Shown piece after piece: positions 8,786 to 63,797 of a stretch of 64,000 nt of DNA. How positions within the stretch are numbered: the first letter of the stretch is position 1; every line of letters begins with the position of its first letter. The position numbers were made by a program, and so were the translations under genes. Origin of the DNA: Chiloscyllium plagiosum (Eukaryota); contig NC_057719.1 in the NCBI RefSeq assembly GCF_004010195.1, forward strand, positions 64,361,794-64,425,793, written 5' to 3'. The notes beneath the pieces were generated by a model, which saw nothing but the letters and a program-made list of their open reading frames with translations, ran no database searches and was not told the origin of the DNA.

Positions 8786-9052
8786 CTGGAACTAACGTTG
8801 TAAAAACAATGACTGCAGATGCTGGAAACCAGATTCTGGATCAGTGGTGCTGGAAGAGCACAGCAATTCAGGCAGCATCCGAGGACAGGCAAAATCGACG
8901 TTTCGGGCAAAAGCCCTTCATCAGGAATAAATCAGGCTTTATTCCTGATGAAGGGCTTTTGCCCGAAACGTCGATTTTGCCTGTCCTCGGATGCTGCCTG
9001 AATTGCTGTGCTCTTCCAGCACCACTGATCCAGAATCTGGAACTAACGTTGT
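8786..9052. mobile_element. Palindromic PLE-derived hammerhead element (family A1) in RDH12 intron 1
   Basis: Perfect 103-bp arms (8829-8931 / 8938-9040); duplication CTGGAACTAACGTTGT at 8786-8801 and 9037-9052. Confidence 0.85.
8941..8976 (+). ncRNA. Minimal hammerhead ribozyme motif (mirror copy on - strand at ~8893-8928)
   Basis: CTGATGA(8945-8951)-A-GGGC-TTTT-GCCC-GAAA-C-GTC(8970-8972); predicted cleavage after 8972. Confidence 0.7.
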
Positions 9053-9153
9053 TAGGTGTCGGCATACCTAGAACTTGTATAATTGCACACCATTTACATT
9101 TACCTTTGCACAGCAAGCAGGGCTTTGAATTACTCCCTGGGCGAAATACTGAC

Positions 9154-9230
9154 CTGATATAGGGGCCAAACGCTGCCAGAAGAAGGGCAGCGATTGCACA
9201 GATCCCAATGATGGTGAATAAGACTGGCAT
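9154..9230 (-). CDS. RDH12: Retinol dehydrogenase RDH12/RDH11-like, coding exon 1 (N-terminal membrane anchor); downstream exons not found in the window
   Basis: ATG at 9230-9228 encodes MPVLFTIIGICAIAALLLAAFGPYI-R, then donor AG|GTCAGT at 9153 (phase 2). A hydrophobic anchor ending in P-x-I-R at a phase-2 intron matches human RDH12 (APSIR) and RDH11 (APQIR). The position next to VTI1B/ARG2 matches vertebrate synteny. Paralog choice rests on orientation only. Confidence 0.75.
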
Positions 9231-9603
9231 CCTGAGCGAGTGAACTGCAGCATCTTTTCTGCAGGAGAGAGGCTGGAAGCAGAGCTGTCAATCAGGCGCT
9301 CCACGGGACCGGATGCGGCTGGGACTACAACTCCCAGAATGCAAGGGGTTGCACGGTCCGTCTCCTTTTCCTTCCCCCGCAAGGGGTGGGGGCGGGGGAA
9401 GATAACAATCAAATGGCGGCTGAAGCAATCAGTAACGACGTTGATGAAACCTCAGGGTGGTGTTGTGGGGGCGGGGTATAGTGTCATGTGATTGCAGAAA
9501 GAGGCGGGGCCTGAAGGGTCGGAAGTTAAGCAGCAGGCTGCTGTTGGTTTTCTACCAGATCGAGATTTAAATCGCCACCTTCCTTTGTTTTAAAAAAAAC
9601 AAA
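9231..9603. promoter_or_regulatory. Bidirectional promoter between RDH12-like and VTI1B
   Basis: 373 bp between divergent ATGs and locally CpG-rich. Contains ACTACAACTCCCAGAATGCA (9324-9343), GC boxes (~9386-9398, 9467-9476, 9501-9510), YY1-like CAAATGGCGGC (9410-9420), GTCATGTGAT (9483-9492) and ETS CGGAAGT (9520-9526). Confidence 0.85.
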
Positions 9604-9700
9604 ATGTCATCCGAGGAATTCGAGAAGATGCACGAAGCCTTTGGCAGCGTTTTGGAGGAACTGAAGTGTCAGTGCGACCGTGTGTCCAACTGTTCAGGAG
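9604..9700 (+). CDS. VTI1B: VTI1B Qb-SNARE, exon 1 of 6
   Basis: MSSEEFEKMHEAFGSVLEELKCQCDRVSNCSG resembles human SSEHFEKLHEIF; donor GAG|GTGAGA at 9701. Confidence 0.93.
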
Positions 9701-9919
9701 GTGAGACTGAGGAAATGCTGGCTTGTTGTAGATCAGGTTTGTTGATAGGCCATTCAGTCCATCCAGCCTGTTCCACCATTCAGTGCGGTCATGGCTGACC
9801 TGACATTTATTAACGAAAGTTTTCTATTTCCCCTCTTTTTTTTGGGAGGCAGTCTTTCTCACTCTATGCAGTCTGTAATCAGTCTGGCCTGTGTAGTTCT
9901 TGTGCACAGCTCAGGTCCT

Positions 9920-10366
9920 GCATCCTACATACAGCCCTGCTCCCATGGGCATCCTACATACAGCCCTGCTCCCATGGGCATCCTACATACAGCCCTGCTC
10001 CCATGGACAGCGTACGTACAGCCCTGCTCCCATGGACAGCGTATGTACAGCCCTGCTCCCATGGACAGTGTATGTACAGCCCTGCTCCCATGGACATCCT
10101 GTGTACAGTCCTGCTCCCATGCAAATCCTGCATACAGCCCTGCTCCCATGCAAATCCTGCATACAGCCCTGCTCCCATGCACATCCTGCGTACAGCCCTG
10201 CTCCCGTGCACATCCTGCGTACAGCCCTGCTCCCGTGCACATCCTGCGTATAGCCCTGCTCCCATGCACATCCTACGTACAGCCCTGCTCCCATGCACAT
10301 CCTGCGTACAGCCCTGCTCCCATGCACATCCTGCGTACAGCCCTGCTCCCATGGACATTCTACATA
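9920..10366. repeat. 29-bp minisatellite, ~15 copies, in VTI1B intron 1
   Basis: Unit approximately TACAGCCCTGCTCCCATGCACATCCTGCG, with variant blocks. Confidence 0.95.
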
Positions 10367-11815
10367 CTTGATCAGGTGTACCCTAGGACTCTATGGGAAG
10401 CTAGTGAAGTGATTGTTCTGCCCCCTACTGAGATATTTGCATCATCAATAGTCACAGGTGAGGTGCTGGAAGACTGGAGATTGGCTAACATGGTGCCATT
10501 ATTTAAGAAAGGTGGTAAGGAAAAGCCAGGGAACTATCAGGCTCATCGGTCGACACCAGTGATGATCAAGTTGTTGGAAGGAATTCTGAGGGACAGGATT
10601 TGCATATATTTGGAAAGGCAAGGACTGATTATGGATAATCAACATGGCTTTGTGCGTGGGAAGTCATGTGTCACTAACTTGATTGAGTTTGTCAAAGAAC
10701 TGACAAAGATGATTGATGAAGGTAGAGAGTTGAATGTGGCATATAAGGACTTCAGCAAGGTGTTCGACAAAGTTCCACATGGTAGACGGGTTAACAAGGT
10801 TAGATCATTATGGAATACAGAACTAGCCATTTGGAAACACCTGCTCCAAGGTGGAAGACAGAGGGTGGTGGAGGAGGGTGGCTTATTGGTTTGGAGGTCT
10901 GTGACCAGTGATGTGCCACAAGGGTTGGTTATAGATGACATCAAAATTGGTGGTGTAGTGGACAGCCAAGAAGGTTCTCTCAGAGTACAATGAGATCTTG
11001 ATCAGATGGGCCAAGGGGACGAGGAGTGGCAGATGGTCTTTAATTTAGATAAATGTGAGGTGTTGCGTTTTTGAAAGGAAAACCAGGGCAGGACTTATAC
11101 ACTTAATAGTAAGGACTGGGGAGTGTTGCTGAACAAAGGAACCTTGGAGTGCAGGTTCATAGTTCCTGGAGAGTGGAGTCACAGGTAGATAGGGTAGTGA
11201 AGAAGGCATTTGGTATGCTTATCTTTATTCGCCAGTGCACTGAGTGTAGGAGCCAGGATATCATATTGCGCTGTACAGGATATTGGTTGGGAATACTGCA
11301 TTCACTTCTGGTCTCCCTGCTATAAGAAAGATGTTGTGAAACTAGAAAGGGTTCACAAAAGATTTATGAGGATATTGCCAAGGTTGGAAGGTTTGAGCTA
11401 TAAGGAGAGGTTGAATAGGCTGGGGCTGTTTTCCCCAGAGCATTGAAGGCTGAGGGATGACCTTAGGTTTGAGGGGCATGGATAGGGTAAATAGACAAGG
11501 TCTTTTTTTTTCCAGGGTAGGGGAGTCCAAAACTAGACAGCATAGATTTCAGGTGTGAAGGAAAAATTTTAAAAAGGACCTAAGAAGCAACTTTTTCACA
11601 CAGAGGGTGGTGCGTGTGTGGAACAAGCTGCCAGAAGAAGTGGTGGACGCTGGTACAATTACAACATTTAAAAAGCAGCTGGATGGGTATATGAATAGGA
11701 AGGGATATGGGCCAAGTACTGGCAAATGGGACTAGATTAATTTAGGTATCTGGTCGGCATGGACAAGTTGGACCTAAGAGTCCATTTCCATGCTGTACAA
11801 TTCTGTGACTTTATG
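10367..11815 (+). mobile_element. 5'-truncated CR1 LINE (RT + 3' tail)
   Basis: DQVYPRTLWE, PLFKKGGKEKPGNY, QHGF, DFSKVFDKVPH, VPQG; internal deletions. Confidence 0.92.
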
Positions 11816-11829
11816 AGTATAGTGTGCAA

Positions 11830-12910
11830 ATTTAGTATAATGTAGGAAAATGCGAAAGTTTGTTTAGGCAGAAAGTATAAAAAAACTAACTAAACCTTAG
11901 CGCATCTTTAGTGGTAGATATATTGGTGCTGACTTGAGGGGCCTTTTTTGCGCTTTATGAAACTATGAACTAAATGGTGAGAGCTTGAAGAGCTGAGATG
12001 CAGAGGGATCCTTTTGCATGGTTGCACAAGGCTAGTATGCAGATATAGTTAAATAATTGGGGAAGCTACTAAAGTGCAATCGTTACAAGTGCATTTTGGG
12101 AAAGGAAATCTTAGCAGGACCTATACACTTAATGGTAAGGTCCTAGGGAGTGTTGCTGAACAAAGAGACCTTGGAGTACAGAATCATAGCTCCTTGAAAG
12201 TCAGTCACAGATAGATAGGATAGTGAAGAAGGCGTTTGGTATGCTTTCCTTTATTGGTCAGAGTATTGAGTACAGGAGTTGAGAGGTCATGTTGCGGCCA
12301 TGCAGGACATTGGTTAGGCTACTTTTGGAATATTGCGTGCAGTTCTGGTCGTCTTCCTATCGGAAAGGTGTTGTGAAACTTGAAAGGGTTCAAAAAAGAT
12401 TTACAAGGATGTTGCCAGGGGTGGAGGATTTGAGCTTTCGGGAAATGTTGAATAGGTTAGGGCTGTTTTCCCTGGAGCATCGGAGGCTGGGGGGTGACCT
12501 TATAGAGGTTTATAAAATCATGAGGGGCATGGATAGGGTAAACAGACAAAGTCTTTTCCCTGGGGTGGGGGAGTCCAGAACTAGAGGGCATAGGTTTCGG
12601 GTGAGAGGGGATAGACATAAAAGAGACTTAAGGGGCAACTTTTTCACGCAGGTGGTACGTGTATGGAATGAGCTGCCAGAGGATGTGGTGGAAGCTAGTA
12701 CAATTGCAACATTTAAAAGGCATCAGGATGGGTATCTGAATAGGAAGGGTTTGGAGGGATATGAGCCGGGTGCTGGCAGGTGGGACTAGATTGGATTGGG
12801 ATATCTCTTCGGCATGGACGTGTTGGACCGAAGGGTCTGTTTCTGTGCTGTACATCTTATTGAAACATACAAGACTTTTGAGGGTCTTGACATCACAGAT
12901 GCGCAAAGGT
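11830..12910 (+). mobile_element. CR1 3' fragment (~12090-12860) nested in an older CR1 remnant
   Basis: LLEYCVQFWS...LERVQKRFTRML...FFTQVVRVWNELP. Confidence 0.85.
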
Positions 12911-13990: not shown

Positions 13991-16632
13991 AGCAATGTCT
14001 GCCTAATTGGCACTAAAAAGGAAAAAAAATGTTGGGAGTTGTCTTGCAAATATAAAATGTTGGAAAAATGACATATAGCACTGCACCTGCAAAAGGGACA
14101 AAACAGGTTTACGATTTGATTGTAAATTCTCTCCATCAGATTTTCTTTTTATGGGTGATTTGCTTCACTGTTAAGGGTAAATCTGTCTACTTTCTTGATG
14201 TTTTTGTCCATTGTTGCTGGAGCACATGAAAAGTTGTGGAGGGAGATGTTAGAACAGTATAAAGAGATATGGGAACACGGGAGGAGACATGAATTATGTG
14301 TGTGGGGATAAAGCATTTGTTATAATTTTGCCAAAACAAAGCTAAGTACAAAAGTTCGAGGTCAGCTAAAACTAATTCCACTCAATATTTACCAATGATG
14401 GGAGAGTTGAGGTAACAGTCTCTTCTGCTATTGTTTGCCTAATTGAACAAAAAAATGGTTCTGTTAATCTGATGTATTCATCCAACGTATGGGACTCATG
14501 AATAAGTAAGGCAATCAAGCCTCGTATACATAATTCCCCATTGAATAAGCCTGTGTCCCATGACTAGTAAGTACTTAGCGCAGTAGGTGGGATGAAAGAG
14601 AGATGAATTTTATGGGGATTAAGATAATGCAACATTTAGTGACATCAACAGATGTGATGCCAGAAGAAATGAAACAAATGCTGGTTCGCTTCTACTTATG
14701 ACGGAAATTTAAAGCTTAAAAAAGTTTTTAAACAGTAAGCACTGTTTTGCCACATACAGAACTAAAACTATTAAATCACAATTGTGTCTGTGACCTGCCT
14801 CAGTATTTCAGCACATGGTAACTCGAAAAACCTGTAGATGCAGCTAGTTCACAAGTTTCTTTGTAACCATATATGAAATCTCTTTCTGAGCAAACTTAGT
14901 GATCATGAGATTCTTGAGCAAATATTAGCTTAGAAACTGGAAAACAGGTCTGTTGTATTGTGAAGTCCCTTGGATCATGCAATATGCTCTACTTGCATTT
15001 CAGCAAATGTGACATCTGATGCAGTTACTTTGAAAGCATAGTGCTATTGTGATTTTGTCTTTTCTAATGTGTTTAATAATGTATATCCCACTGCAACAGA
15101 TTTTGTGATGGTTTTTATTGCAATCATTTTGAAGAAATTCTCCTTCCTTAACAATGGTAGTTTCAGGGTTTTTGTTTTGCTCGCCATCTTAAATTTATTT
15201 TTCCCCTTTTTATCAGATGAGAAGACACATTGGTAACATGTACAACAAACTAATAAGAGCAGTGTGATGCAGTCAGTTAATAATTTTGCTCCTTTATCTA
15301 AATTGTCTTCTTCCTCCCTTCAGTGGAAGCCTCATGTGTAGCCTCTATCAGATATCTCTCACTAACGAGTTAAGTGAGTTATCACTTGGTATATAGTGCT
15401 TCTGTATACCATGTTAATCTGCATTATGTAAGCACAGTATAAGCAAGGACTTCTATTTGATCTAGAATCAACATAATATATTATCTAATTTTTCACAGTG
15501 CCGATAGTAGGAAATCAAATTTTAAAAATTGTTTCTGATTTTAATTGTTGGCAACCACTAAATATTAAGTTTCCCTTATCCCTTTATGATATAAATGACA
15601 GGAAATGTATCAAAAAGCACGTTTGCCATGTTATGTTATACTCACCGACATGCCTCATATGCATTACATATACCATTACCATTTACTTGTGGCATGAAAC
15701 TCAGGGAAAGGTAAGTAGCTGTTTCCCCAGTCTGTCTTCTCAAGAATGTTGAACCTGCTGAAAACTCCTGGGTGAAATTTGCTTTATCAATACTGACTGT
15801 TGCTGTCATTCTGGTAATTGTGGTTGTCATTGTTGGATTCCCTACATTGTACCAGAAATTGCAGTTTTTATGTGATTCATGAACTGAGTTCTTAGCACAG
15901 TAGTCAAGCTCACCATTGTATTAGAATATCTGTTAGCTTTATTTTCCCTGTTGCTTTATCCAGGTTGCTGTGGGCACTGTGCTCAGAAGACAATTACTGT
16001 TGGGAGAGCTAAGGAAGTGGGAGTTATTGGTTTGTGACACCTCACAAGGTTTTGACATGCAGTCAGTTCTCAGCAAAGTTTGAAAAGTACAATATTCTGG
16101 CCAATCAAGATTGTGTTTCAAGCATTGTGGTGGCCATAAATGAGCAAACCAACTGATGCTTAATAAATGAATGTGATTCACAAATTCCTTGAATATTTTC
16201 CTGCATCTTAATACACAGGCTTATTTGTGTAAACTCACTTATCTGATGAGCATTCAAAGCCTGAAACATGAACCATGTTTCTCTCCACAAATGCTGAGAC
16301 GTCTTGAGCAATTTCCAGTTTTTAAGATTTGTACATCTGCAGTATTTTGCTATTGTAAATAAACTTATTGTTCTAATAAATCATATCCAAGATACTAGCC
16401 AACTATGAATTAGTAGCCGAACCTCAGTAGCTTAAATAAACCTTTCCAAAGATATTTTTATTGTCTCTAATGGCTTAATGGCCCAATGGCCCCAAGGGTA
16501 TCCAAAACCAAAATAAGTTTCAACACTTAATGGTGTTTCACAACTTGAGGATGGGTGTATGGATAGAGCTTCCTTAAAGCTTCATTGGAAATATATCAAA
16601 TGATCATTCACTGATCATTTAATGTTTTGCAG

Positions 16633-25469: not shown

Positions 25470-26160
25470 AAATGTGGCACAAAGAACAGGTACCCAATGA
25501 AAACAGTCTGCCAATTTCTCAGCAACACACCCCAACAAGCAGTCAACATGTCCAGAAACCCTAGCCACTCTCCCCCTATCAAAGGCATCTTGGAAATGAC
25601 TGTTAGACTACTCAGACCCCTTGGCATCATGGCAGCCCACAAACCCACCCACACACTAAAACAGCAGCTAATGAACTTTAAAGACCCTATACAGACAACA
25701 AGTAAAACTAATGTCACTTACAAAATACCTTGCAAGAACTGTAACTAACATTACATTGAAAAAACAGGCAGAAAACTAGCCACCCAAGGTACATGAACAT
25801 CAACTAGCCACAAAACAACAACATGACCCACTCTCACTAGTAACCTTACAGATAAGGACACCACTTTGACTGGGACAACACATCCATTCTAGGACAAGTC
25901 AACAGAGAGACACACGAGAATTCCTAGAAGTTTGGCATTCCAACTGGAACACCAACAAACACCAGACTTAGATCCCATTTACCACCCCCTGAGAAAAAGA
26001 ACAGGAAATGACATCACCAACCCAAGGAAACCAAAACAAATAAAAAGCAGGCCATGCCACCAGTGCTTCATCCAGAGGCTCATTGACTGTTATCTAGTAT
26101 GGTGATGAAACGTTTGGAAACTAACCTTCCAACTCAGCTAGCAAACCTACATCCACAACT
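25470..26160 (+). mobile_element. Penelope-like element fragment (family B): GIY-YIG endonuclease end plus pLTR
   Basis: TNVTYKIPCKNCN*HYI..TGRKL....HEHQLAT...FDWDNTSIL...REFLE; terminal repeat with decayed hammerhead (~26080-26118) homologous to 54290-54505. Confidence 0.8.
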
Positions 26161-26828
26161 CTTTGTTATGCACATAGTAATTTAGCTCAAATCAAGTTGC
26201 TTTGTCAAGACATCAGATCAAAATGCATACTTATGGAGGCTTTTGAAAAGATGCACAGCAAAACCCAGTTGAAAGCTGGCATTTTGGTTGGTGAAACATG
26301 AACAAGACTCCGTGTTGCAATGGTAGCTCTGCAGCCTGTATGCCAATCCTATTTTCTTTAGGAATTTTTGGTCATCTGCTTCTGCCACCTTAAGGCAATA
26401 GGTTCCAGGCCATTACCAAGAATCAAAAGAAAAATATTTCTCACATCCCTTTTTATCACTTGACCAAGCCTTAAGTTTGTATCCTAGTTTTCATACCAAC
26501 TATTTTGTTTATCTTATGGAAAGATGTCAATTTTGTATAACCATCTTTTCTCAGTCTCCTTTGACGTACAACCACAGCTTCTCCAACCTAACCTTCTCAC
26601 TAAACTGCTCTATTCCTGGAACCAGTCTAGCAAGTCTCCTCTGTAATGTTACATCTTAAAGTGTAAGAATGAGAACTGAATATTAATTGTGACAATCAGA
26701 ACTTGAGATTGGTGCAACTTCCCTGCTTTTGTCTACTGTACTTCTATTTATCAAACCCAAGATCTCACACTCATCTCTTAAGTCCTTCAAACAATAATCC
26801 CCAGATCCCTGTCTCCCACTGTAGAACT

Positions 26829-26930
26829 GTCAAAAATCAAACACCAGGTTATGATCCAATATGTTTATTGGAAATTGCAAGCTTTTGGAGCAATTTCAAA
26901 TAAACCTGAGACTATAACCTGATTTTTGAC
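26829..26930. mobile_element. Degenerate fold-back copy of hammerhead short element family C
   Basis: Arms GTCAAAAATCA...TTTATTGGAAATTGC / GCAATTTCAAATAAAC...TGATTTTTGAC; similar to 55630-55700. Confidence 0.6.
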
Positions 26931-27074
26931 CTTGTTCATTTCCTGAAGAAGGGCCTGTGCCCGAAACGTCGAATCTCCTGTTCCCTGGATGCTGCCTGAC
27001 CTGCTGTGCTGTTCCAGCAATAAAGTTTCAACTTTGATCTCCAGCATCTGCAGACTTCACTTTCTCCTTGTTCA
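26930..27074 (+). mobile_element. PLE-derived hammerhead element (family A2)
   Basis: TTC-CTGAAGA-A-GGGC-CTGT-GCCC-GAAA-C-GTC-GAA (26940-26973); flanking duplication CCTTGTTCA at 26930-26938 and 27066-27074. Confidence 0.8.
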
Positions 27075-27889
27075 CTCCAGTCCAACTCTGGCATCTCCAC
27101 ATCATGTAGACCTCTGCACTAAAGTCCATATTGCCTTTTCCTAGCCCCTTTTCCCAAATGCAACAACTTTCACAATACAATACCAAATTCCATCTACCAT
27201 TTGTCTGTCCATTCTGCAGACTTTGTCAATTGTTAGCAGCCTTATTGCTTGCTACATCTCCATGTTTTGTATCATTTAAAATTGAACAACCTTTTCTGCT
27301 CATCCATGATTTAGTGTTGGTCAGACTAAGACAATTAAAAATATCTAGTTCATGGTTAATGTGTTTTAGTATTTACTCTTTGGTTTTAGGATTAAAGTTT
27401 CTACCGAAAATGGGATAAATTTAAATGAAGCAAATGGAAACAGAGATTAATAGTAGAGTAGCAGCATCAGAAATTGCAGATGGGCTTGTTGATCAAAGGA
27501 TATTGTCTGTACTGCTTGTAGTAATGCCAGTCTAGACACGGTTTTGGGTTTCTGAAAAGCCAAACCCATTTACTTCTTCAGATTAAAAAAGAAATTAAGT
27601 AGACAGCTCAGAGCAGACTATCATAAGGCTGGGTGGAGCTTAACATAATTCTCAAATTAGATACTACCAGCAAAACTAACAATTTACAAAGTACCATGCA
27701 AGAACTGTAAAAACAAAACACTACATCAGACATGAACAAGCATGAAACTTGCCACCAGGATACATGAACATCAACTAGCTACCAAACAACACGACCCACA
27801 ATCACTCGTTTCTATACATATAGACAAAGAAGGACATTTTGACTGGGACAACTCAGAACAAGCAAAACAAAAACATGCATGAGAATTCG

Positions 27890-28470
27890 AGTCATAGAGC
27901 CACAGAGATGTACAACACGGAAACAGACTCTTTGGTCCAACTCTTCCATACTGACCAGATATCCCAACCCAATCTAGTCCCACCTGCCAGCACCCAGCTC
28001 ATATCCCTCCAAACCTTTCCTATTCATATACCCATCTAGATGCCTTTTAAACATTGCAATCATACTAGCCTCCACCATTTCCTCTGGCAGCTCATTCCAT
28101 ACATGCACCACCCTCTCCGTGAAAAAGTTGCCCCTTAGATCTCTTATATCTTTCCCCTCACCCTAAACCTATGCCCTCTAGTTCTGGACTCCTCCATCCC
28201 AGGGAAGAGACTTTGCCTATTTATCCTATCCATGCCCCTCAATTTTATAAACCTCTACAAGGTCACCCCTCAGCCTCAGACACTCCATGGAAAACAGTCC
28301 TAGCCTATTCAATGTCTCCCTATAGCCCGAATCCTCCAACCATGGCAACATCCTTCTAAATCTTTCCTGAACCCTGTCAAGTTTCACAACATCCTTCCGA
28401 TAGGGAGGAGACTAGATTTGCACGCAGTATTCCAACAGTGGCCTAACCAATGTCCTGTACAGCCACAACA
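27890..28470 (-). mobile_element. CR1 3' end inserted into the Penelope remnant
   Basis: Reverse complement of the CR1 tail and LEYCV region. Confidence 0.88.
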
Positions 28471-28499
28471 CATCCTCAAGGCCTGGTGTTCTAACTGAA

Positions 28500-29135: not shown

Positions 29136-29829
29136 AATTCCATCAATAAACTCATCCCTGGGAAAAAGAACCAGAAATGACATCACCCACCTTAAGAAAC
29201 AAGACCTGGAACATACCACCAGTTCTTCACCAGAGATGCTCACTGATGTTACCTAGTCATGGTGGTGAAAACGTCGGAGAATAAACCTTCCAGCTCAACA
29301 AGCTAACTTACAAATCAACCTGAGCAACAGATCTTAAAAATTGCTCATGGTTCTCCAATTTCAATTTGTGTGTGTGTTATGTGGGAGATAGTTAGTTGCA
29401 GTTTTGAGCTGGGTAAGTGCTGCAAAGGAAGTGGCTCCTAACTGCACAGTTACCAGACTTAGACAGGTCGGGCTCAGGGGAAAACCCAAAAAGTAGTGGT
29501 TTCATTCTGTGGGGAAAAAAAAGAGCTAAAAAGCAGCTGATAATGAGAAACGAGCCCATCAACAGCACTTCCTAATACAGCAGTGAAAGATCAGAGCTTG
29601 TAGAAATGCAGGAGCAGCTCAGTGAAGCCAGCTACATGACAAGTGGAAATTAAAACTGAAAACAGAGTCAGATTTTGGAAGTTTTCCAAGGCCAGATTGT
29701 TGGAAATGAGGGAACAAAATTCCTTGTAAAGTGAGACATTCACTTTGATGACCCACAGCGTCAGTAAAGTCTGAGTCAAATCTGGCTTGGTTGCATTGGC
29801 CAGTTAAAGTGCAGTTTAGATTTTTTTTT

Positions 29830-30140
29830 AAGATTAGATTAGATTCCCTAGTGTGGAAACAGGCCCTTTGGCCCAACAAGCCCACACCAACCCTTCGCAG
29901 AGTAACCCACCCAGACCCATTTCCCTCTGACTAACGCACCTAACCCATGGGCAATTTAGCATGGCCAATTCACCTGACCTGTACATCTTTGGATTGTGGG
30001 ATGAAACCAGAGCATCTAGAGGAAACCCACGCAGACACGGGGAGAATGTGCAAACTCCACTCAGACAGTCGCCAGAGGCTGGAATCGAACCCTAGTGCTG
30101 TGAAGCAGCAGTGCTAACCACTGAGCCACCGTGCCACCCC
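29830..30140 (-). mobile_element. tRNA-derived V-SINE (HE1-like)
   Basis: - strand: GGTGGCACGGTGGCTCAGTGGTTAGC (box A), GGTTCGATTCC (box B), V-domain TTTGCACATTCTCCCCGTGTCTGCGTGGGTTTCCTC, (AATCT)n tail. Confidence 0.88.
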
Positions 30141-30141
30141 A

Positions 30142-30683: not shown

Positions 30684-32450
30684 ATAGAGTCATAGCCATA
30701 GAGACGTACAGCACAGAAACAGACCCTTCAGTCCAACTCGCCCATGCCAACCAGATATCCCAACCCAATCTATTCCCACCTGCCAGCACCTGGCCCATAT
30801 TTCTCCAAGCCCTTCCTATTCATATACCCATCCAGATGCCTTTAGAATGTTGCAATTGCACCAGCCTCTAGCACCTCCTCTGGCAGCTCATTCCATACAC
30901 GCACCACCCTCTACGTGAAAAGTTACCCCTTAGGTCTCTTTTATATCTTTCCCCTCTTACCCTAAACCTATGCCCTCTAGTTCTGGACTCCCCCAGCCCA
31001 GGGAAGAGACTTTGTCTATTTACCCTATCCATGCCCCTCATGAGGTTATAAACCTCTAAGGTCACCCTTCAGCCTCCGACACTCTAGGGAAAACAGCCCC
31101 AGCCTATTCAACCTCTCCCTTTATTCAAATCCTCCAACCCTGGCAACATCTTTGTTAGTCTTTTTTGAACCCTTTCAAATTTCACAACATCTTTCCGATA
31201 GGAAGGAGACCAGAATTGCACACAGTATTCCAACAGTGGCCTAACCAATGTCCTGTAGAGCCACATGACCTCCCAACTCCTATACTCAATACCCTGACCA
31301 ATAAAGGAAAGCATACCAAACGCCTTCTTCACTATCCTATCTACCTGTGACTACACTTTCAAGGAGCTATGAACCTGCACTCCAAGGTCTCTTTGTTCAG
31401 GAAAACTCCCGAGGACCTTACCATTAAGTGTATATGACCTGCTAAGATTTGCTTTCCCAAAATGAAGCACCTCACATTTATCTAAACTAAACTCCATCTG
31501 CCACTTCTCAGCCCACTGGCCCATCTGATCAAGATCCCATTGTAATCAGAGGTAACCTTCTTCACTGTCCACTACATCTCCAATTTTGGTGTCATCAGCA
31601 AACTTACTAACTATACCTCTTATGCTCCCATCCAAATCATTTATATAAATGATGAAAAGAAGTGGACCCAGCACCGATCCTTGTGGCACTCCACTGGTCA
31701 CAGGCCTCCAGTCTGAAAAAACAACCCTCCACTACCACCCAGTGGTGGAGCCAGTTCTGTATCCAAATGACGAGTTCTCCCCGTATTCCTGAAGGGCTTA
31801 TGCCCGAAACGTCGATTCTCCTGTTCCCTGGATGCTGCCTGACCTGCTGCGCTGTTCCAGCAACACATTTTCAGCTTCAGTGAAATCTAACCTTGCTCAC
31901 CAGTCTCCCATGGGGAACCTTGCTGAAGTCCATATAGATCACATCTACCAATCTGCCACCATCAATCCTTTGTTACTTCTTCAAAAGACTCAACCAAGTT
32001 TGCGAAACATGATTTCCCACACACAAAGCCATGTTGACTATTCCTAATCAGTCCTTCCTTTCCAAATACATGTACATCCTGTCCCTCAGGATTCCCTCCA
32101 ACAACTTGCCCACCACCGACATCAGGCTTACCGGTCTATAGTTGCCTGGCTTGTCTTTACTACCTTTCTTAAACAGTGGCACCACGTTTGCCAATCTCCA
32201 GTCTTCCTGCACCTCACCTCTGACTACCGATGATACAAATCTCAGCAAGAAGCCCAGCAATCACTTCCCTAGCTTCCCACAGAGTTCTAGGGTATACCTG
32301 ATCAGGTCCTGGGGATTTATCCACTTTGATGCATTTCAAGACAACTAGCACTTCCTCCTCTAATATGGAGATTTTTTCTCAAGATGTCAACATTTATTTC
32401 CCTACATTCTGTATCTTTCATGTCCTTTTCCACAGTAAACACTGATGTAA
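30684..32450 (-). mobile_element. CR1 LINE RT + 3' tail
   Basis: PLFKKGSKDKPGNYRPVSL, RPLLEYCVQFWSP; interrupted at 31786-31876. Confidence 0.92.
31786..31876 (+). mobile_element. Short family A2 element inserted in CR1 (hammerhead core deleted)
   Basis: ATTCCTGAAGGGCTTATGCCCGAAACGTCGATT...CATTTTCAGCT. Confidence 0.75.
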
Positions 32451-42797: not shown

Positions 42798-44097
42798 AAC
42801 TGATCCAACATCAAAGAGTGTGGCGCTGGAAAAGCACAGCTGGTCAGGCAGCTTCTGAGGAGCAGAAGAGACAATGTTGCCATGCCAGCATATGCTCTTC
42901 ATCAGGAATGTGGGGGGTGGGGTGAGTGAAGGGGCTGAGAGATAAATGGAAGGATGGTCGGGCTGGGGGTCAGGTAGCTGGGAAGGCGATAGTTAGATGA
43001 AGGTGGGGGGGTGATGGTGATAGTTTGGAGTGGATAGGTGGAAAGGAAGATGGACAGTTAGGACAGTTCAAGAGAGCAGTGCCCAGTTGGAGGGTTGGAT
43101 CTCAGATAAGGTGGGGGCAGGAAGATGAGGAAACTGGTGAAATTGACTTTAATTCAGTGTGGTTGAAGAGTCCCAAGGTAGAAATTGAGGTATTTGACCT
43201 CACGTCGTCGAGTGGCTTGGATTTGGCGGTGAAAGATGCCCAGGACCTGCATGTCCTTGGTGTAGTGGGAAGGGGAGCTGAAGTTGTCAGTCACAGAGCG
43301 GTGGGATTGTCCCGGAGGTGTTCTCTGAAACGTTCCGCAAGTTGGCCTCCTGTTTCCCCAATGTAGAGGAGACCACATTGAGAGCATTGGTCACAGTAGG
43401 TAAGCAGTTGAAGGTGCAGGAAAATCTCTGCCGGATATGGAAGGATCCTTTGGGGCCTTGGATGGAGGTGAGGGGGGAGGTGTGGGCGCAGGTTTTACAC
43501 CACTTGTGGTGGCAAGGGAAGGTGCTGGGAGTGGAGGGTGGCATGGACCTAACGGAGTCACAGAGGGAATGGTCTCTGCAGAATGCTGATGGGGTGGGGA
43601 AGGAAATCTATCTCTGGTGGTGAGATCTGACTGTAGGTGACAGAAATGGCAGAGGATGATGTGTTGCCTCCAGAGATTGGTGGGGTGGTAGGTGAGGACT
43701 GGAGGGTTCTATCCTTGTTGGGGTTGGAGGAGTAGGGTTCAAGGGTGGAGGTGCAGAAGTGGAAAAGATGCATCGGAAGGCATTGTTGACCATGTGGGAG
43801 GGGAAATTGTGGTCTTTGAGGCCATGTGGGATGTTCTGGAGTGGAATTGGTCCTCCTGGGAGCAGATGAGGCTGAGGTGGAGTAATTGGGAGTAAGAGAT
43901 AGCGTTTTTACAGGGGGTGGGGTGGGAGGAGGTGTAGTCCAAGTATCTGTGGGAGTCAGTGAGTTTGAAGTAGATGTTGTGTTGAGTCAGTTTCCAGAAA
44001 TGGAGATGGAGAGGTCCAGGAAGGGGCTAGAGCCACACTGTTTGACTCTGATCTCCAGCATCTGCAGTCCTCACTTTCTCCGAACTGATCCAATATC
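42798..44097 (-). mobile_element. Penelope-like element (family A parent): RT C-terminus, GIY-YIG endonuclease, pLTR, inverted terminal piece
   Basis: - strand SSHPTPCKNAISYSQLL, FPCHHKWCKTC (Zn knuckle), CGLLYIGETGGQLAERFREH; family A pLTR at 42813-42910; inverted tail 44032-44081; duplication AACTGATCCAA(C/T)ATC at 42798-42812 and 44083-44097. Confidence 0.88.
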
Positions 44098-45253: not shown

Positions 45254-45387
45254 CATTCCTGATGAAAGGCTATGCCCAAAACATCGATTTTCCTGCTCCT
45301 TGGATGCTGCCTGACCTGCTGTGCTTTTCCAGCACCACTCTAATCTTGACTCTAATCTCCAGCATCTGCAGTACCCACTTCTGCCTG
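45254..45387 (+). mobile_element. Family A2 hammerhead element (decayed core)
   Basis: ATTC-CTGATGA-AAGGCTATGCCC-AAAACATCG...CTCCAGCATCTGCAG. Confidence 0.75.
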
Positions 45388-46719
45388 GTTATAAATCTGT
45401 CTAACACATGCCATTGGTAGGCATCAGGTATGGAAGAGTTTGCTGGTCAGCCATGTGATGGAAATAAATTGGCAATCCTGCTGTCATGCGTAGCATCAGG
45501 CCATAACATACATGTAAAAAAAAATGTATTTTGCAACTTGGATTCCTTAGGAGGTAGTTGCCTGGATGGCTGGGGTGGATTTGGAACCTGTCTATTGGTC
45601 TTACTCATGGTGGAGGTAATAGGATTCAGAATTGCCTTCAGGAAGGGAACTAAAAAAGGAAGAATGGGGGCAAGTCTATTTTTAAAAAAGAATCCAGAGG
45701 AGGGGTGAATGGTTAACTGTTACTGTCAAAGGCAAAAAGAAGATGAAGACTGACACATACAAAGAAAAAGAAACAAAGTAGGGAGGCAGAGATTACAATG
45801 CAAGATTCTTAAATTCCATGTTGCATGTAGAAAGCTGTGCCGTGTCACATTGAAAGATGAAGCTTTCCAGTGGCAGTGCAGCAGACTGATGTCAGCCTGC
45901 AAACAAGCTAGAAAATTTGGATGACATGCAAGTGGTAGCTCAGGACCATGCTCAAGACTCGTGGTGGCCCAATCTGCATTTGCCCTTCCTTGTACAAAGT
46001 ATACTGTGTTGTCAGCTGTGATGACAATGGACCAATTTGAAAGAAATACTTGAATGTCCTAAATTGAAATATTTACATGCAAATCACTGTTTCACATGGA
46101 AATATCTGAATCATGTAGATAGTCCCTTGTATTCTCATTCCCTAAATCCAAAGGCTGTCCAGCATTGTATTAGCGTTTTTCATTGATTTTTTTACATCTG
46201 ATCACAATATGTTGACAATGTAATTTCATGGACTCCTAAATCTTTTCAGATCTTAACTTTTTGCAGCATCTTACCAATAAGAAAATATTCTCTTTTTATC
46301 CGTTTGAGTTCCAAAATGAATAACCTCACATTTGCCTATATTTGTTCAAATCCAAATGGATGATTGCAGTGTCTGTTTCCTCACTCTATGACTCTAATAA
46401 AGTCAGTAGAAAATTGTCAACAGCTTAAGATAGTCCTAAAAGGATGTAGTAAGGAAAGGACAATAGGTGTTACTCAGAGGTGAGCAGCTGATGAGGGTAA
46501 GGGCTACAGTCTTTATGAAAGTATTCACATAAATCTCCTGAAAACAAATTCCAGCATCTCCATTGTAATTTGAACATGGATCATTTCTTTGAGAAAATTT
46601 GAAAATATACATTAAAAACTGTTTTGTTTAAGAATATAATTTTAGTTTTAGTAATTTCCATTTTTCCAAAGGAATGAGGTCAATGCATTAAAACATATTT
46701 AGAGTCTATTAAACTTAAA

Positions 46720-51019: not shown

Positions 51020-51645
51020 TTTTGTGTGTGTGTGTGTGTGTACACACACACACACACACACAGTAAGAGTAATTCGGGCCATGTGTGTGTGTACACGTAC
51101 GGTAAAAATAACTTGGGGGGTGTGTGTACATACATGTACGGCAAGAGTCATTTGGGCTGTGTGTGTGTATACAAGGTAAAAACAATGACTGCAGATTCTG
51201 GATTAGTGGTGCTGGAAGAGCACAGCAGTTCAGACAGCATCCAAGGAGCAGCGAAATCGATGTTTCGGGCAAAAGCCCTTCATCAGGAATAAAGGCAGTG
51301 AGCCTGAAGCGTGGAGAGATAACCACGCTTCAGACTCACTGCCTTTATTCCTGATGAAGGGCTTTTGCCCGAAACGTCGATTTCGCTGCCCTTGGATGCT
51401 GTCTGAACTGCTGTGTGTATACAAGTACGGTAAGAGTTTGTGTGTGTGTATATACGTACAGTAAGAGTAACTTGAGCTGTGTGTGTGTACATACACATAC
51501 AGTAAGTTATTTGCGCTGTGTGTGTGTGTATACACATACAGTAAGAGTTATTTGGGCTGTGTGTGTATATACATATGTATGGTAAGAGTTATTTGGGTTG
51601 TGTGTGTGTGTGTATATACACACGTACGGTAAGAGTAGTTTGGGC
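51020..51645. repeat. Compound (TG)n-rich minisatellite, ~35-40 bp unit, ~10 copies
   Basis: Unit approximately (TG)nTATACACATACGGTAAGAGTTATTTGGGC; split by the palindromic element. Confidence 0.88.
51162..51425. mobile_element. Palindromic family A1 hammerhead element
   Basis: Arms 51221-51314 / 51323-51415, loop AGAGATAA; duplication TGTGTGTATACAAG at 51162-51175 and 51412-51425. Confidence 0.85.
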
Positions 51646-54278: not shown

Positions 54279-54516
54279 AATTCAGATAACAAACAGGAAA
54301 TGACATCACCACAAACCCCAGGAACCCCATTCAGGAGAAAGGTATAAATAGAAAGCAGGAGACAACAGCTTTGCTTCACTTGGAGGTCGCCACTGATGAT
54401 GTTACCTAGCCAGGTAATGAAACGTCTGGATATCAAAACTACAGCTCAGTGAGCAAACCTACACCCTAAACCTCAACCTGAGCTACAAAACTTCACAAAC
54501 CTTGCAATTCAGATAA
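54279..54516 (+). mobile_element. Solo pLTR of Penelope family B inserted in CR1
   Basis: 216-bp insert (54290-54505) between perfect duplications AATTCAGATAA (54279-54289, 54506-54516); homologous to ~26000-26160 and ~29165-29340. Confidence 0.85.
54390..54429 (+). ncRNA. Minimal hammerhead ribozyme motif (family B, intact core)
   Basis: CCA-CTGATGA-T-GTTACC-TAGCCA-GGTAAT-GAAA-C-GTC-TGG; stem I CCA/TGG, stem II GTTACC/GGTAAT; predicted cleavage after 54426. Confidence 0.75.
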
Positions 54517-55374
54517 ATGTGAGATACTGCCTTTTGGGAAAACAAATCTTAGCAGGATTTATACACTTATTGGTAAGGTCCTAGGGAATGTTGCTGAACA
54601 AAGAGACCTCGGAGTGCAGGTTCATAGCTCCTTGAAAGTGGAGTCGCAGGTAGATAGGATAGTCAAGAAGGCGTTTGGTATGCTTTCCTTTATTGGTCAG
54701 AGTATTGAGTACAGGAGTTGGGAGGTCATGTTGCAGCTGTACAGGACATTGGTTAGGCCACTGTTGGAATATTGCGTGCAATTCTGGTCTCCTTCCTATC
54801 GGAAAGATGTTGTGAAATTTGAAAGGGTTCAGAAAGATTTACAGAATGTTGCTGTAGGATTTGAGCTATAAGGAGAAATTGAATAGGCTAGGGCTGTTTT
54901 CCCTGGAGTGTCAGAGGCTGAGAAGTGACCTTTATAGAGGTTTATAAAATCATGAGGGACATGGATAGGATAAATAGACAAAGTCTTTTCCCTGGGTTGG
55001 GGGAGTCCAGAACTAGAGGGCATAGGTTTAGGGGAGAGGGGAAAGATATAAAAGAGACCTTGGGGCAACTTTTTCATGCAGAGGGTGGTACGTGTATGGA
55101 ATTAGCATCCAGAAGAATTGGTGGAGGCTGGTACAACTGCAACATTTAAAAGGCATCTGGATGGGTATATGAATAGGAAGGGTTTGGAGGGATATGGGCC
55201 GGGTGTTGGCAGGTGGGACTAGATTGGGTTGGGATATCTGGTTGGCATGGGCGAGTTGGACCCAAAGGGTCTGTTTCTGTGCTGTACATTTCTATGACTC
55301 TAACGTTCAAATACTCAGCAAGTCAGGCAGATTGGTAGAGAGAGAAGACAGGACATTTTGGGAATGGACTGGCA

Positions 55375-55600: not shown

Positions 55601-55604
55601 AGAA

Positions 55605-55700
55605 CTTCACCTGACGAAGGAGCAGCACTCTAAAAGCTTGTGGTTTCAAATAAATGTGTTGGACTATACTTTGGCATTGTGTGACTTTTGACTTTGTTTA
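55605..55700 (+). mobile_element. Family C hammerhead-type short element (decayed)
   Basis: CAC-CTGACGA-A-GGAG-CAGCA-CTCT-AAAAG-CTT-GTG, followed by AAATAAA...GGACTATA. Confidence 0.55.
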
Positions 55701-56769: not shown

Positions 56770-56887
56770 GGGCTTTTGCCCAAAGTGTTGATTCTCCTGC
56801 TCCTCGGATGCTGCCTGACCTACTGTGCTTTTCCAGCACCACTCTCTCAACTCTGATCTCCAGCATCTGCAGTCCTCGCTTTCTCTC
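56770..56887 (+). mobile_element. Family A2 element, truncated within the hammerhead
   Basis: GGGCTTTTGCCC...GATGCTGCCTGACC...CTCCAGCATCTGCAGTCCTC. Confidence 0.75.
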
Positions 56888-59189: not shown

Positions 59190-59925
59190 TAGGGAAGACA
59201 CCAGACAGTTGATAGTTAACACAGTTGGATGTGAGGTGGTGCACGTTGGTGGGAAGAATGAAATCAGGAAGTTTGGGTTGGATGTCACAGCTCTGTGGTG
59301 GTTATTTGCAGGAGCAGAGAAGTCTGTGGATATAGATCTGTGTCAGTAGTAAGAAACATGGAAAGGGCTATTAAAATGCATATGTGATTCTTGGTGAATG
59401 GAAGGAGAGAGAATAGGGGCAGGGAATTCATTCCTGATTTGTAGAACCCAGTTAGAGTATTATATTCAAATTTGGGTTTTCAGTCATATGTCAGGCCCTT
59501 TAATAGGATGCAAAAATGATTTACCAGAATGATGCCTAGGATGAGAGACTTCAGATATGTGTAGACACGGAAAAGCTTGGGATTTTCTCCTTTAGAGTAG
59601 AGAATGTAGCGGCGAATTGACGGAGGTGTTCAAAATCCTAAATAATTCTGATTGACAAAGTAAATAGTAAGCTACTTCCAGTGACAGAAAGCATTGGTAA
59701 CCAGTGGGCACTGATTCAAGGTGATTGGCCAAAGAAACAATGGCTACAAACGTGGTGACATTTTCTTCTGACACAGTGGGTTGTTGCAATCTGGAATGTA
59801 TGACCTCAGAGGTTGATGGAAAGAATGCAGTGGTAGAATTCCAAAGAGAATTGGACAAACTCCTGAAGGGAATAAAATTGCTGGGCTCTTGACACAGATC
59901 AGGGAGAAATGGGATAGCTCTCCAA
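59190..59925 (+). mobile_element. Highly decayed CR1 3' region
   Basis: Remnants of CEVVH, LEY.IQ.W, FTRMMPRM and EVFKIL. Confidence 0.65.
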
Positions 59926-60172
59926 AAGAGCTGAAAATGTGTTGCTCGAAAAGCGCAGCAGGTCAGGCAGCATCCAAGGAGCAGGAGAATCGACGTTTTG
60001 GGCATGAGCCCTTCTTCAGGAGCCTGAAGAAAGGCTCAAGCCCGAAACGTCGATTCTCCTGCTCCTTGGATGCTGCCTGACCTGCTGCGCTTTTCCAGCA
60101 AGACATTTTCAGCTCTGATCTCCAGCATCTGCAGTCCTCACTTTCTCCTTTTTTCTAGCTCTCCAAAAGAGC
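59915..60172. mobile_element. Palindromic family A2 hammerhead element
   Basis: Arms 59927-60020 / 60023-60116 with a 2-nt spacer; duplication TAGCTCTCCAAAAGAGC at 59915-59931 and 60156-60172. Confidence 0.85.
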
Positions 60173-61817
60173 CAGTAATGCCACAGTAAACTTAATTGAT
60201 TCCCTTACTGTATAAGTATACAAAAAAGAGATCTTGTCTGTATCAAAAAAAAGTCACATTGTATTTGCATATTTCTATTCTTATTTTCCTTGAAGCAAAA
60301 TTCTGGCCAATATTTGCAATTCAGTGAACAAATTAACAGTGCTTTTACAAAAACTTTCCAGTAATGCTGATTAACTAGATGACAGTGTAGCCAGTTAGCA
60401 AGACTATTGACTGTGTGCTTCCAGATCAACTGAATGGAGTTTGATCCTTGTTCCAGTTAGGATCTGTCTCCTCGGCCTATTCCAAACCAATCTCAGCAAT
60501 TTGGTGTGGTTCAGAAAATAATCAACGAAGACCACCCTTCAGGCAGACAACTCAAAAACAATTATTATTCTTGATATTACTGAGATGTTTGTCGCATGTA
60601 TTTGCATTAAAGTTATAATTGAGCACAGGATTTTTCCTGTTTTTTCTACTGGGGGTGTGTGAATGTGACAGTGGGGAATTACCATAATAGTTTACCATGT
60701 CCTTTACTCTGTTCATTGACCCATGTCTTGTGCACTCACAGGAGCACAAAGTGGAAACTTGCGTAAATTGTTGTTTTTGCCAATGTACACAGTTTCAACA
60801 TTGCTGCTCTCTGCTGTGACTTTGAGTTCAAGCTGATTTGAGAACAAACCTAAACACGTTCTATGTCATCAGATGAATTAGTATCCGATAACAACCCCTG
60901 TATTTTTTATACATGCAAAAGTAAACACTTCTAAAGCTTTAGCTTTAAAAATGGAGCTAAAACGAAAAGTAGAAGGGATGTCAAAGGTAAGTGGAACTAG
61001 AAATGACAATGGTATTAAATATATTTCTCATTAGTCTTTTAGAATCAGATCTTTTGCTTTCCATCTCCATTCAGGGCAGTTATAAATGGATCGCCCTATG
61101 CTTCTGCTGACATTTTTGATGCAGTCATAGGAGTGGACTCCATAGATCCTCTAACAACTCTGTGTGGCCATCTGGGAAGAGTTTCAAAGTTGGCATGGAC
61201 TGGGCACCGCTCAAGTGGTGTGCAAGAACTGAAGATACAAGCCCCCCCATCCCAACTTTGCTCTATTTTCATGCACTATACAAGACTATCAACCCCATTT
61301 TAGATTCTGCCTCTGTACATGCCATTTTACTCCAGATTTTACATGCAATAAGGCAAGGTGAGCATATGCTATTGTCTTCCAAGGACAGCTCTTGGTGAGG
61401 TACTGTCTCCCTAGGCAAACAATGTCCATGGTCCATGAAACCTATCCCTGAATGCCATATTTTTAAGTTTAAATTTTAGATTATGCCTAATGCATAAGTG
61501 AGATACAGCAAAAAGTATGTATTGGATAATGGTGTTTGCAAAATGTCTTATGTATTAATGTGAAATGTATTAGTGAGAACGGTCAAGAGTGTTTTGATTA
61601 TCATTGGCTATAACATACACGATACAGCACTATTTCAGTCACCATAGCCTTGACACTGAATGGCATATATGTAAATCAGTCACAATTCAAGATTCACTGG
61701 GAAGCCAAAACACTGCAATTGATGCTTCAACATCCAGCTTTTAAAGGATTCTCCATGTTTCCAACCAACAGGAAAAGAAAAACTTTTGTTTAGGGGATTT
61801 GGGTGTTGCTATGCCTA

Positions 61818-62507
61818 AGTGGAGTTGCAGGTCGATAGGATAGTAAAGAAGACATTTGATATGCTTTCCTTTATTGGTCAATGCGTTGAGTATAGAAGTT
61901 GGGAAGTCATGTTGCGGCCGTATGGGACATTGGTCAGGCCACTTTTGGAGTATTGCTTGCAATTCTGGTCTCCTTCCCATTGGAAAGATTTTGTGAAACT
62001 TGAAAGAGCTCAGAAAAGATTTCAAAGAATGTTGCCAGGGTTGGAGTGTTTGAGCTATAGGGAGAGGCTGAATAGGCTGGGGCTGTTTTCCCTGGAGTGC
62101 GGAGACTGAGGGGTGACCTTATCGAGGTTTATAAAATCATGAGGGGCATTGGTAGGATGAATAGACAAGGTCTTTTCCCTTGCGTGGGGGAGTCCAGAAC
62201 TAGAGGGCATAAGTTTAGGGTGAGAGGGGAAAGATATAGAAGGGAACTAAGGGGCAACGTTTTCATACAGGTGGTATGTGTTTAGAATGAGCTGCCAGAT
62301 GAAGTGGTGGAGACTGGTACAATTGCAACATTTAAAAACATTTAAAAGGCATCTGGATGGGTATATGAATAAGAAGGGTTTAGAGGGACATGGTCCAGGT
62401 GCTGGCAAATGGGATTCCATTAGGTTGGGATATCTGGTCAGCATGGACGGGTTGGACCAAAGGGTCTGTTTCCACGCTGTACATCTCTGTGACTCTATGA
62501 CTCTATC
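61818..62507 (+). mobile_element. CR1 3' fragment
   Basis: RPLLEYCLQFWSP; (GACTCTAT)n tail. Confidence 0.9.
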
Positions 62508-62554
62508 TCTAACTGCCCAGAGGGCAGTTAGAATTTAATTACATAGCTGTTATA

Positions 62555-62735
62555 AGTTAGCTCAGTTGGCTTTGACAGCTAGTTTGTAATACGGAGTGAC
62601 ACCAACCGCGTGAGGTTACCATGGAGGACTCTCCTTCTTAACCTCTCCCCTTGCCTGAGGTGTGGTGACCATCAGGTTCAACCCTTTAATGAGGGAGCAG
62701 CCCTATGGTCTGTTAGGACTGTGATGACGTTTACA
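62555..62735 (+). mobile_element. Decayed SINE-like element; second copy at ~63395-63610
   Basis: TAGCTCAGTTGG box A-like start; shared blocks TGACACCAAC, TTACCATG, GAGGT.TGGTG, TAATGAG...CCTATGG in both copies. Confidence 0.55.
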
Positions 62736-63527
62736 TAGTGTCTGAATGTGTATGATGTTACTTCTACAGTAATTACCTGCTCATTTGTTGTGTAGGTTTC
62801 CAAACTGCTAGAACATGGAGTGCTACAGTAAGGCTGACCTGCAATAGAGATGAAAAAAGCTGAAATGTCAATTGTTGGTAAAGCGATGTTAATGGTTAAT
62901 CAGTGTACAATATCAATTCCTCCTCCTCCTTATCGGAAGACAGTAACTCATTCAGTTACAACTTTACACATGCTGGCAGTAATACCTGCATCTGAACTGA
63001 GAGTTCTTCATGTATATGACCTAGCTGGTGAGATTTGAAATACTTTTGACTGCAGGACCATTACATTCAAGGGCACTGGTGAACCCACAATGTTCCCTTT
63101 TTCACAGACTATGCTGGAACAACAGGCACAGGGAGCTCAGCTTGATTATTTTTCTCTCTCTTCCTTGATTAGGAAATGGATGAGCTGGTTATCTGCCAGG
63201 CAGTAAAACCAGTAAAAGAGTGTAGTGTAGGGGATTCCAACTGTCACAAGGGACTTTTAGATTCCAAAAACAACACAGAGGGAACTTTTGCGAATTTGCC
63301 CTCAGCAGATGGTTTACCTGATTTAACAATGATTATGTTAGCTGCAATAACATGAGAAATTGGGTGTCAGTATTGTGGTATTGAAGATTCTTGGGAGTTG
63401 GCTGGACAGCTGGTCTGTGATATAAAATGACACCAACAGTGTGGATTCAATTACCATGAACCTCTCTCCATCTCAATCTCTCTCCTGAACCCGAGGTATG
63501 GTGGATCTCAGGCTAAACTCACTACCA

Positions 63528-63530
<3 letters not shown>

Positions 63531-63562
<32 letters not shown>
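63531..63562. repeat. (TC)n microsatellite
   Basis: About 15 TC units inside the second SINE copy. Confidence 0.95.
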
Positions 63563-63563
<1 letters not shown>

Positions 63564-63679
63564 ATGAGAGAACAGACCTATGGCCTGCTGGAGCTATGGT
63601 AACTTTACTTACTGTATTGAAGGAATCCAACAGATATTCATTACAACCAATTATTGTCATGATTCCAGTTGATGTTATT

Positions 63680-63797
63680 GCTTTTGCCCGAAACGTCGAT
63701 TTTGCTGCTCGTCGGATGCTGCCTGAATTGCTGTGCTCTTCCAGCACCACTGGTCCAGAATCTGGTTTCCAGCATCTGCAGTCATTGTTTTTACCTT
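63680..63797 (+). mobile_element. Family A1 element truncated within the hammerhead
   Basis: GCTTTTGCCCGAAACGTCG...CATCTGCAGTCATTGTTTTTACCTT; flanked by TTATT on both sides. Confidence 0.8.

Follow-up and report, generated by a model that had tools for sequence, protein, structure and literature searches.

Hammerhead-motif repeats in a 64-kb stretch of the Chiloscyllium plagiosum genome are very probably truncated ends of three Penelope-like retrotransposons

A 64,000-nucleotide (nt) stretch of the genome of the shark Chiloscyllium plagiosum (assembly GCF_004010195.1, contig NC_057719.1, positions 64,361,794 to 64,425,793 of the forward strand; below, the window, with coordinates counted from its first letter) contains dispersed repeats of three families, A, B and C, with the layout of a hammerhead ribozyme. 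An initial annotation, made from the letters alone, had named 14 such sites and read them as short, non-autonomous units resembling short interspersed elements (SINEs) and retrozymes and derived from the termini of Penelope-like elements (PLEs). Family sequence is present at all 14 loci, which hold 18 hammerhead-region arms (12 of A, three of B and three of C) and, beside these, one tail-only piece of family A (44042-44081). The insertions are listed here in order.

8786..9052, both strands: young family A head-to-head insertion with a 16-nt target duplication (8786-8801 and 9037-9052); unmutated motifs at 8897-8924 (minus) and 8945-8972 (plus), the minus arm with the tail and the plus arm shorter.
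25482..26159, plus strand: old family B copy; decayed GIY-YIG coding piece (25482-25899), then 3' untranslated region (UTR) and a broken hammerhead at about 26079-26115.
26828..26935, both strands: family C head-to-head remnant lacking CUGANGA; its tail resumes past the nested A copy, at about 27076-27105.
26940..27072, plus strand: family A copy lying inside the C remnant, with a target duplication of about 10 nt and an unmutated motif at 26943-26970.
29156..29335, plus strand: old family B copy with a deletion in the core.
31785..31881, plus strand: family A copy, CUGANGA short by 3 nt.
42798..44097, minus strand: long, old family A copy; remains of a reverse transcriptase (RT) thumb, Cys linker and GIY-YIG (43124-43978), 3' UTR, broken hammerhead at about 42880-42910, the inverted tail piece at 44042-44081, and a 15-nt target duplication with one mismatch.
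45255..45399, plus strand: family A copy with G12>A, flanked by a 9-nt direct repeat.
51162..51425, both strands: family A head-to-head insertion in a (TG)-rich minisatellite, with a 14-nt target duplication; motif unmutated at 51351-51378 (plus) and with one change at 51259-51286 (minus).
54279..54516, plus strand: young family B copy (54290-54505) with an 11-nt target duplication and an unmutated motif at 54393-54426.
55607..55700, plus strand: old family C copy with G12>A.
56770..56885, plus strand: family A copy that begins within stem II and lacks CUGANGA.
59915..60172, both strands: family A head-to-head insertion with a target duplication of up to 17 nt; the plus motif (60024) lacks the first stem II pair, and the minus motif carries G12>A.
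63680..63785, plus strand: family A copy that begins in stem II/loop II and lacks CUGANGA.

The intact core layout was read at only four of the 14 loci, where five of the 18 arms (the unmutated motifs listed above) retain core, stem II and GUC; two more, 51259-51286 minus and 60024, are one change short. Elsewhere CUGANGA is wholly missing (56770, 63680 and the C remnant at 26880) or interrupted by deletions (31790, 29250 and 26090), G12 is replaced by A (arms 45255, 55610 and 60021 minus), or GAAA has gone (42910 minus arm). The loop variation noted within stem II of family A needs one correction, as the variant TCAA comes from 60024, where the first stem II pair is lost. The elements had also been called short; the copies at 42900 and 26090 are about 1.3 kb and 0.7 kb long. 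Target duplications of 9-17 nt flank seven of the 14 loci.

To relate the repeats to the wider genome, an unselected sample of 1.03 Mb was used, made of blocks chosen by position. Fixed 5' ends and a fixed palindrome had been suggested by the first genome searches; these candidates were dropped as query bias, and the position-chosen blocks were used instead. As the proposed Penelope origin would have it, all three families run upstream into RT and GIY-YIG coding sequence. At three family A loci (L003, L106 and L107), a pyrimidine-rich 3' UTR is followed, going upstream, by GIY-YIG, a CX4CxxC linker and RT; GIY-YIG at L106 scored over the Pfam cut-off (E 7.7e-5) and RVT_1 at L107 under it (E 0.003). 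The window copy at 42900 likewise reaches coding sequence (43124-43978), with GIY-YIG at E 0.019, under the Pfam cut-off. Most of 25 family B loci lead into GIY-YIG without a linker of the CX4CxxC type, with RT pieces beyond (RVT_1, E 2.5e-6, under the Pfam cut-off); the same was seen at window 26090, where 25482-25899 matched a family B protein (tblastn, E 1e-32). In family C, the linker and GIY-YIG are present in two long copies from the unselected 1.03 Mb, one of which also has RT, matching the RT of family A (tblastn, E 1e-19). The order of RT and then GIY-YIG upstream of the pseudo-long terminal repeat (pLTR) was pieced together from several broken copies. Past the tail of family A lies the start of the open reading frame (ORF), so the repeat corresponds to a pLTR plus tail.

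From these data we consider it very probable that the window repeats are the 5'-truncated tail ends of three protein-coding Penelope-like retrotransposons, each with its own minimal hammerhead, and likely inert once inserted. Independent non-autonomous units, SINE- or retrozyme-like, find no support in the window copies, which belong to families with upstream ORFs, have variable 5' ends and are single or head-to-head and not tandem. A CX2-5CxxC linker, which marks Neptune-type ORFs (Craig 2021, PMC8557442), is present in A and C and absent from the B piece examined, and only the Neptune and Poseidon clades are reported from vertebrates (Li, Clavereau, Pollet 2026, bioRxiv 10.64898/2026.07.22.740005); on these two grounds, A and C are classed as Neptune-type and B as Poseidon-type. 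In young family A copies (L019, L243 and L254), a single reading frame runs unbroken from hammerhead to ORF start, across the tail; the other A subfamily inspected by eye does not keep it.

The motifs have the expected features of a minimal type I hammerhead with a palindromic stem III: an extra nucleotide before stem II, a G-C closing pair and a palindromic 15.2-16.2, which is ACGU in A and B and AGCU in C. Cleavage after GUC, as proposed for all three families, can be predicted for A and B; the family C motif reads CUGAUGA-A-GGAGC/GCUCC-GAAA-GCUA, with CUA as the predicted triplet. The families have three unrelated stem sets which nevertheless pair, as had been noticed at the outset. Within family B, stem I shows a two-sided change (CCA/UGG versus UCA/UGA), and changes in stem II give wobble pairs, although this comparison rests on few independent lineages. 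In most A copies, stem I has only two or three adjacent pairs. Profile searches of the 1.03 Mb returned 198 matches for A, 32 for B and 64 for C, and none for any family in the reversed sequence. A family-blind hammerhead descriptor gave 75 matches, with none in the reversed sequence or in five of five shuffles, and 51 of the 75 had the palindromic 15.2-16.2. An Rfam scan of the window returned no match to a hammerhead family, only hairpin and miRNA noise on palindromes. On their sequence features, the unmutated motifs of the window and genome are members of the PLE minimal hammerhead ribozyme (min-HHR) class.

Several further observations concern the motif and its surroundings. The window holds another decayed hammerhead-like motif (16243-16310), the downstream part of which resembles older relatives of A with a different stem II; five copies of the latter occur in the 1.03 Mb. 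By eye, TATA-like and initiator-like sequences lie upstream of the B hammerhead at 54330-54385, and TTATCTY upstream of the hammerhead is kept in several A subfamilies; both are putative promoter or splice signals. At L011:318-540, the 44-45 nt hammerhead core of A alone is repeated five times head-to-tail, a natural array that may be capable of forming dimers.

Exact searches of the whole genome for unmutated motifs found 87,506 of A (all A subfamilies), 18,117 of C and 4,828 of B, with zero for each read-backwards control. The total of 110,451 in 3.56 Gb confirms the very large copy number that had been anticipated. The predicted density was one per 5 kb; fragments occur at about one per 3.5 kb (294 arms in the 1.03 Mb) and unmutated motifs at about one per 32 kb. 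These roughly 110,000 motifs should not be equated with working ribozymes.

A core conserved no better than its flanks had been named at the outset as a refuting result, and core and flanks were compared in genomic copies of A. The share of copies differing from the column majority was 2-8% for non-CpG core columns and 1-7% for the best-conserved non-CpG flank columns, and 23-25% of copies were changed at CpG core columns, including C17 and the catalytic G12. The core is not better conserved than its flanks, so the copies decay without sparing the ribozyme, and at the level of genomic copies the refuting result is the one obtained. Between families, in contrast, the core is kept while the stems change and still pair, implying selection in master elements; together, the two patterns point to selection on the core that would act in active master elements only. 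The same results make it very improbable that the dispersed copies are host intronic ribozymes maintained by selection, a reading to which some 110,000 unmutated motifs would lend weight, as would one run in which RNA reads of both strands cover the motif. Against it, the core decays as the flanks do, with G12 altered in 23% of A copies, and the head-to-head layout places the second copy antisense. Predicted monomer folds do not exceed shuffled sequences in stability (z from -1.4 to +0.6), and in those of A and B the core is paired to GUC. For minimal PLE hammerheads, the published finding is that the monomer does not cleave (Cervera and de la Pena 2014, PMC4209133).

The ends of the copies were then mapped relative to C3 of the hammerhead. 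The 3' ends gather at the tail, and the 5' ends are spread from +50 to beyond -300. Counts of 5' ends and head-to-head pairs were based on arms scoring at least 30 bits (158 of A, 29 of B and 60 of C). Within 1.5 kb, 81 of 158 A arms, 34 of 60 C arms and 10 of 29 B arms are head-to-head, with the tail on one arm and the other arm shorter. Between +10 and -19 lie the 5' ends of 84/158 A arms, 27/60 C arms and 1/29 B arms. The per-base end rate in this interval is 0.012-0.039, compared with 0.001-0.006 away from the motif, with a shoulder that extends to -39 in A and to +20 in C; in B, the 5' ends are flat at about 0.003-0.004 per base. Copies of A and C therefore end about ten times oftener at the 5' edge of the hammerhead than elsewhere. 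Truncation at the hammerhead cut site (+28) was rejected, as no peak of 5' ends was found there, with only 7 of 158 A ends falling in +21 to +40. Unsampled subfamilies were also rejected as the source of the pile-up: none of 28 mate-free copies has the parent's pyrimidine-rich upstream sequence, with a mean upstream pyrimidine content of 0.48 compared with 0.7-0.85 in most long copies. Aligning to the best of many references shifts ends 5-10 nt too far upstream, the 30-bit filter drops short matches that start at +40 or later (15 of 127 began at +31 or later without it), and assembly gaps at long copies limit the 5'-end data. Among 30 young-A loci examined by eye, the 5' ends were broader than in the all-subfamily sample, from about +46 to beyond -85, with several cut by assembly gaps; an ungapped walk on these loci stopped at subfamily indels, and its numbers were not used. 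With respect to the hallmarks of a SINE, a fixed 5' end and an own Pol III head, the 5' ends are variable and continue into ORF sequence, and no separate head was seen, although A and B boxes were not scanned for. In family C, 25 of 25 head-to-head loci (L136-L160) have one palindromic centre in common, immediately upstream of the motif; these loci came from a biased query, and a recurrent fold point or a re-amplified palindrome would both fit.

A route by which such copies could arise is offered by the Poseidon element of Anolis. In vitro, its protein is reported to nick both strands and extend them, with uncleaved RNA as the template and synthesis begun internally, at the tail; cleavage by the hammerhead required the protein (Frangieh 2024, PMC11167929). 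Under that model, stubs should be short and include the complete motif, and ends should not accumulate at the cut site, as is seen here. By analogy, the RT-endonuclease would nick both target strands, and cDNA would begin internally on uncleaved RNA, at a point in the tail that lies about 125 nt downstream of the motif. Synthesis would mostly stop early, and a second priming event or fold-back would give the inverted arm, while the ribozyme probably cuts tandem transcripts of active masters as a protein-assisted dimer. In A and C, synthesis most often ends at the hammerhead 5' edge, most likely because either the template RNA starts there or the RT stalls there. RNA reads were obtained from one raw-read run (798, on both strands) and none from a second; they show no site where many molecules begin or end, and derive from poly(A) single-cell data, which cannot show circles, cleavage or the start site. 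Among the indexed sequencing runs, none that contains the repeats is recorded as RNA.

We tentatively put forward a more specific possibility, which we hold to be less probable than not by some distance. The Neptune template RNA may start just upstream of the hammerhead, so that synthesis primed at the tail would reach the end of the RNA after about 130 nt. In this way, SINE-sized stubs and fold-backs would be mass-produced by an autonomous element without a separate master, and occasional template jumps would assemble tandem arrays lacking the ORF, which could spread as newborn retrozymes even where the core is mutated. If so, the genome would record a birth route of animal retrozymes, together with by far the largest vertebrate hammerhead count yet. 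The RT stop point relative to the hammerhead can be read from thousands of copies. It is not the same in the Neptune-type families as in the Poseidon-type one, and it is relevant to the debated role of PLE hammerheads.

Tandem derivatives of family A were found outside the window. Of 30 loci picked for young-A post-tail sequence, 21 hold mini tandems: the sequence passes abruptly from the ORF start either to the final 30-125 nt of the 3' UTR or into the pLTR. One exact junction, giving a 281-nt unit, recurs at 18 loci on 16 contigs (L261-L278, e.g. C13:66597818-66600851), with up to six cores per locus. Four linked substitutions are common to 11 of the 18, and 15 of the 18 carry A9>G in the core of the unit. 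The locus with six cores (L267) includes three consecutive units with unmutated cores. The change A9>G is expected to impair hammerhead cleavage, and its presence in 15 of 18 units suggests that these units could spread without a working ribozyme of their own. No head-to-tail tandem array of A, B or C units lies in the window, nor any mini-tandem unit (tested for the young A subfamily only). Genome-wide, exact matches to the post-tail 33-mer number 865, compared with 87,506 for the unmutated A motif and 4,352 for a young-A 48-mer. The retrozyme-like units proposed for the window are thus not found among its copies but have a counterpart elsewhere in the genome, in an ORF-less tandem A derivative, a minor, re-amplified lineage that fits the non-LTR retrozymes. 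In these mini tandems, the origin of retrozyme-like units from a PLE can be traced.

They also raise the alternative that the source of most short A and C copies is a set of retrozyme-like RNAs without an ORF, mobilised in trans by Neptune proteins and made of tandem units (about 250-300 nt; hammerhead, tail, ORF start, jump and 3' UTR end). A short RNA would account for the early truncation, and the frequency of mini tandems, the shared junction, its linked substitutions and the six-core locus all speak for such RNAs. We nevertheless judge this unlikely for the bulk of the copies, given how few post-tail 33-mers there are beside the A motifs and young-A 48-mers, the A9>G change in most re-amplified units and the lack of any such young-A unit in the window; most junctions, moreover, are unlike between loci, as expected of template jumps during insertion. 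Derivation of the window repeats from protein-coding PLEs remains the preferred reading. Weighing against it, the 5'-end pile-up of A and C is somewhat SINE-like, ORF-less tandem derivatives do exist and were re-amplified, and an intact full-length master copy was not retrieved, with assembly gaps where the long copies lie. Moreover, about nine in ten A arms and most C arms have no coding link, so a short copy alone cannot tell an autonomous from an ORF-less template. Coding matches on the same strand, ending at most 1.2 kb upstream, were found for 18/198 A, 16/32 B and 1/64 C arms of the 1.03 Mb; the two long family C copies show the link directly.

Other features of the region are a 29-nt minisatellite of 15 copies (9921-10367) and a TG-rich minisatellite of 39-41 nt units (51020-51640), host of the A insertion at 51300. 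Many pieces, 70-95% identical, of another LINE-type repeat, which we take to be CR1-like, lie at 3300-6350, 10400-12900, 27880-32250, 53560-55300 and 61760-62500, and the B copy at 54390 sits inside one of them. About 73 kb upstream of the window, a 284-codon open frame (L048:6287-7138) resembles a host exon.

Hammerheads of this kind are already known. They have been described in the pLTRs of metazoan PLEs, including Neptune and Poseidon of fish, mostly as single motifs from truncated PLEs together with opposite-strand pairs (Cervera and de la Pena 2014, PMC4209133), so that both the solo and the opposite-strand arrangement date from 2014. The motifs share with those min-HHRs the extra nucleotide before stem II, the G10.1-C11.1 pair, the palindromic 15.2-16.2 and the presence of several families per genome. 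The top vertebrate counts given there, about 4,000 in coelacanth and 9,000 in Xenopus, compare with 110,451 here, a rough comparison since different, family-specific patterns were used. No cartilaginous fish is named in the available text of that paper, and literature searches, which lay outside the 2014 and 2026 supplements and Repbase/Dfam, found no paper on shark PLE hammerheads. Prior annotation of families A, B and C in Repbase/Dfam is likely, because a Penelope-like expansion in whale shark introns is already in print (10.1101/443036). As in endonuclease-positive PLE insertions (Craig 2021, PMC8557442; Arkhipova 2013, PMC3846280), there is heavy 5' truncation with partial tandems and an adjacent inverted copy, one of the arms may bear a tail of 30-40 nt, and short target duplications and solo pLTRs occur; A and C show a sharp excess of 5' ends at the hammerhead 5' edge, which is absent in B and is not described in the available text of those papers. 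The lack of a genomic pile-up at the cut site is shared with Anolis Poseidon, although the model of Frangieh (2024, PMC11167929) concerns the Poseidon element only, and its use for A and C is an extrapolation. Non-LTR retrozymes are described as PLE-derived, ORF-less and with a type I hammerhead, with one chondrichthyan included and a mean unit of 363 bp, and are defined by two or more units in tandem, each with a complete hammerhead (Li 2026); the single or head-to-head window copies differ from these, and the mini tandems match them in being ORF-less, tandem and dispersed. The repeats of the window extend this known pattern to a very PLE-rich genome.

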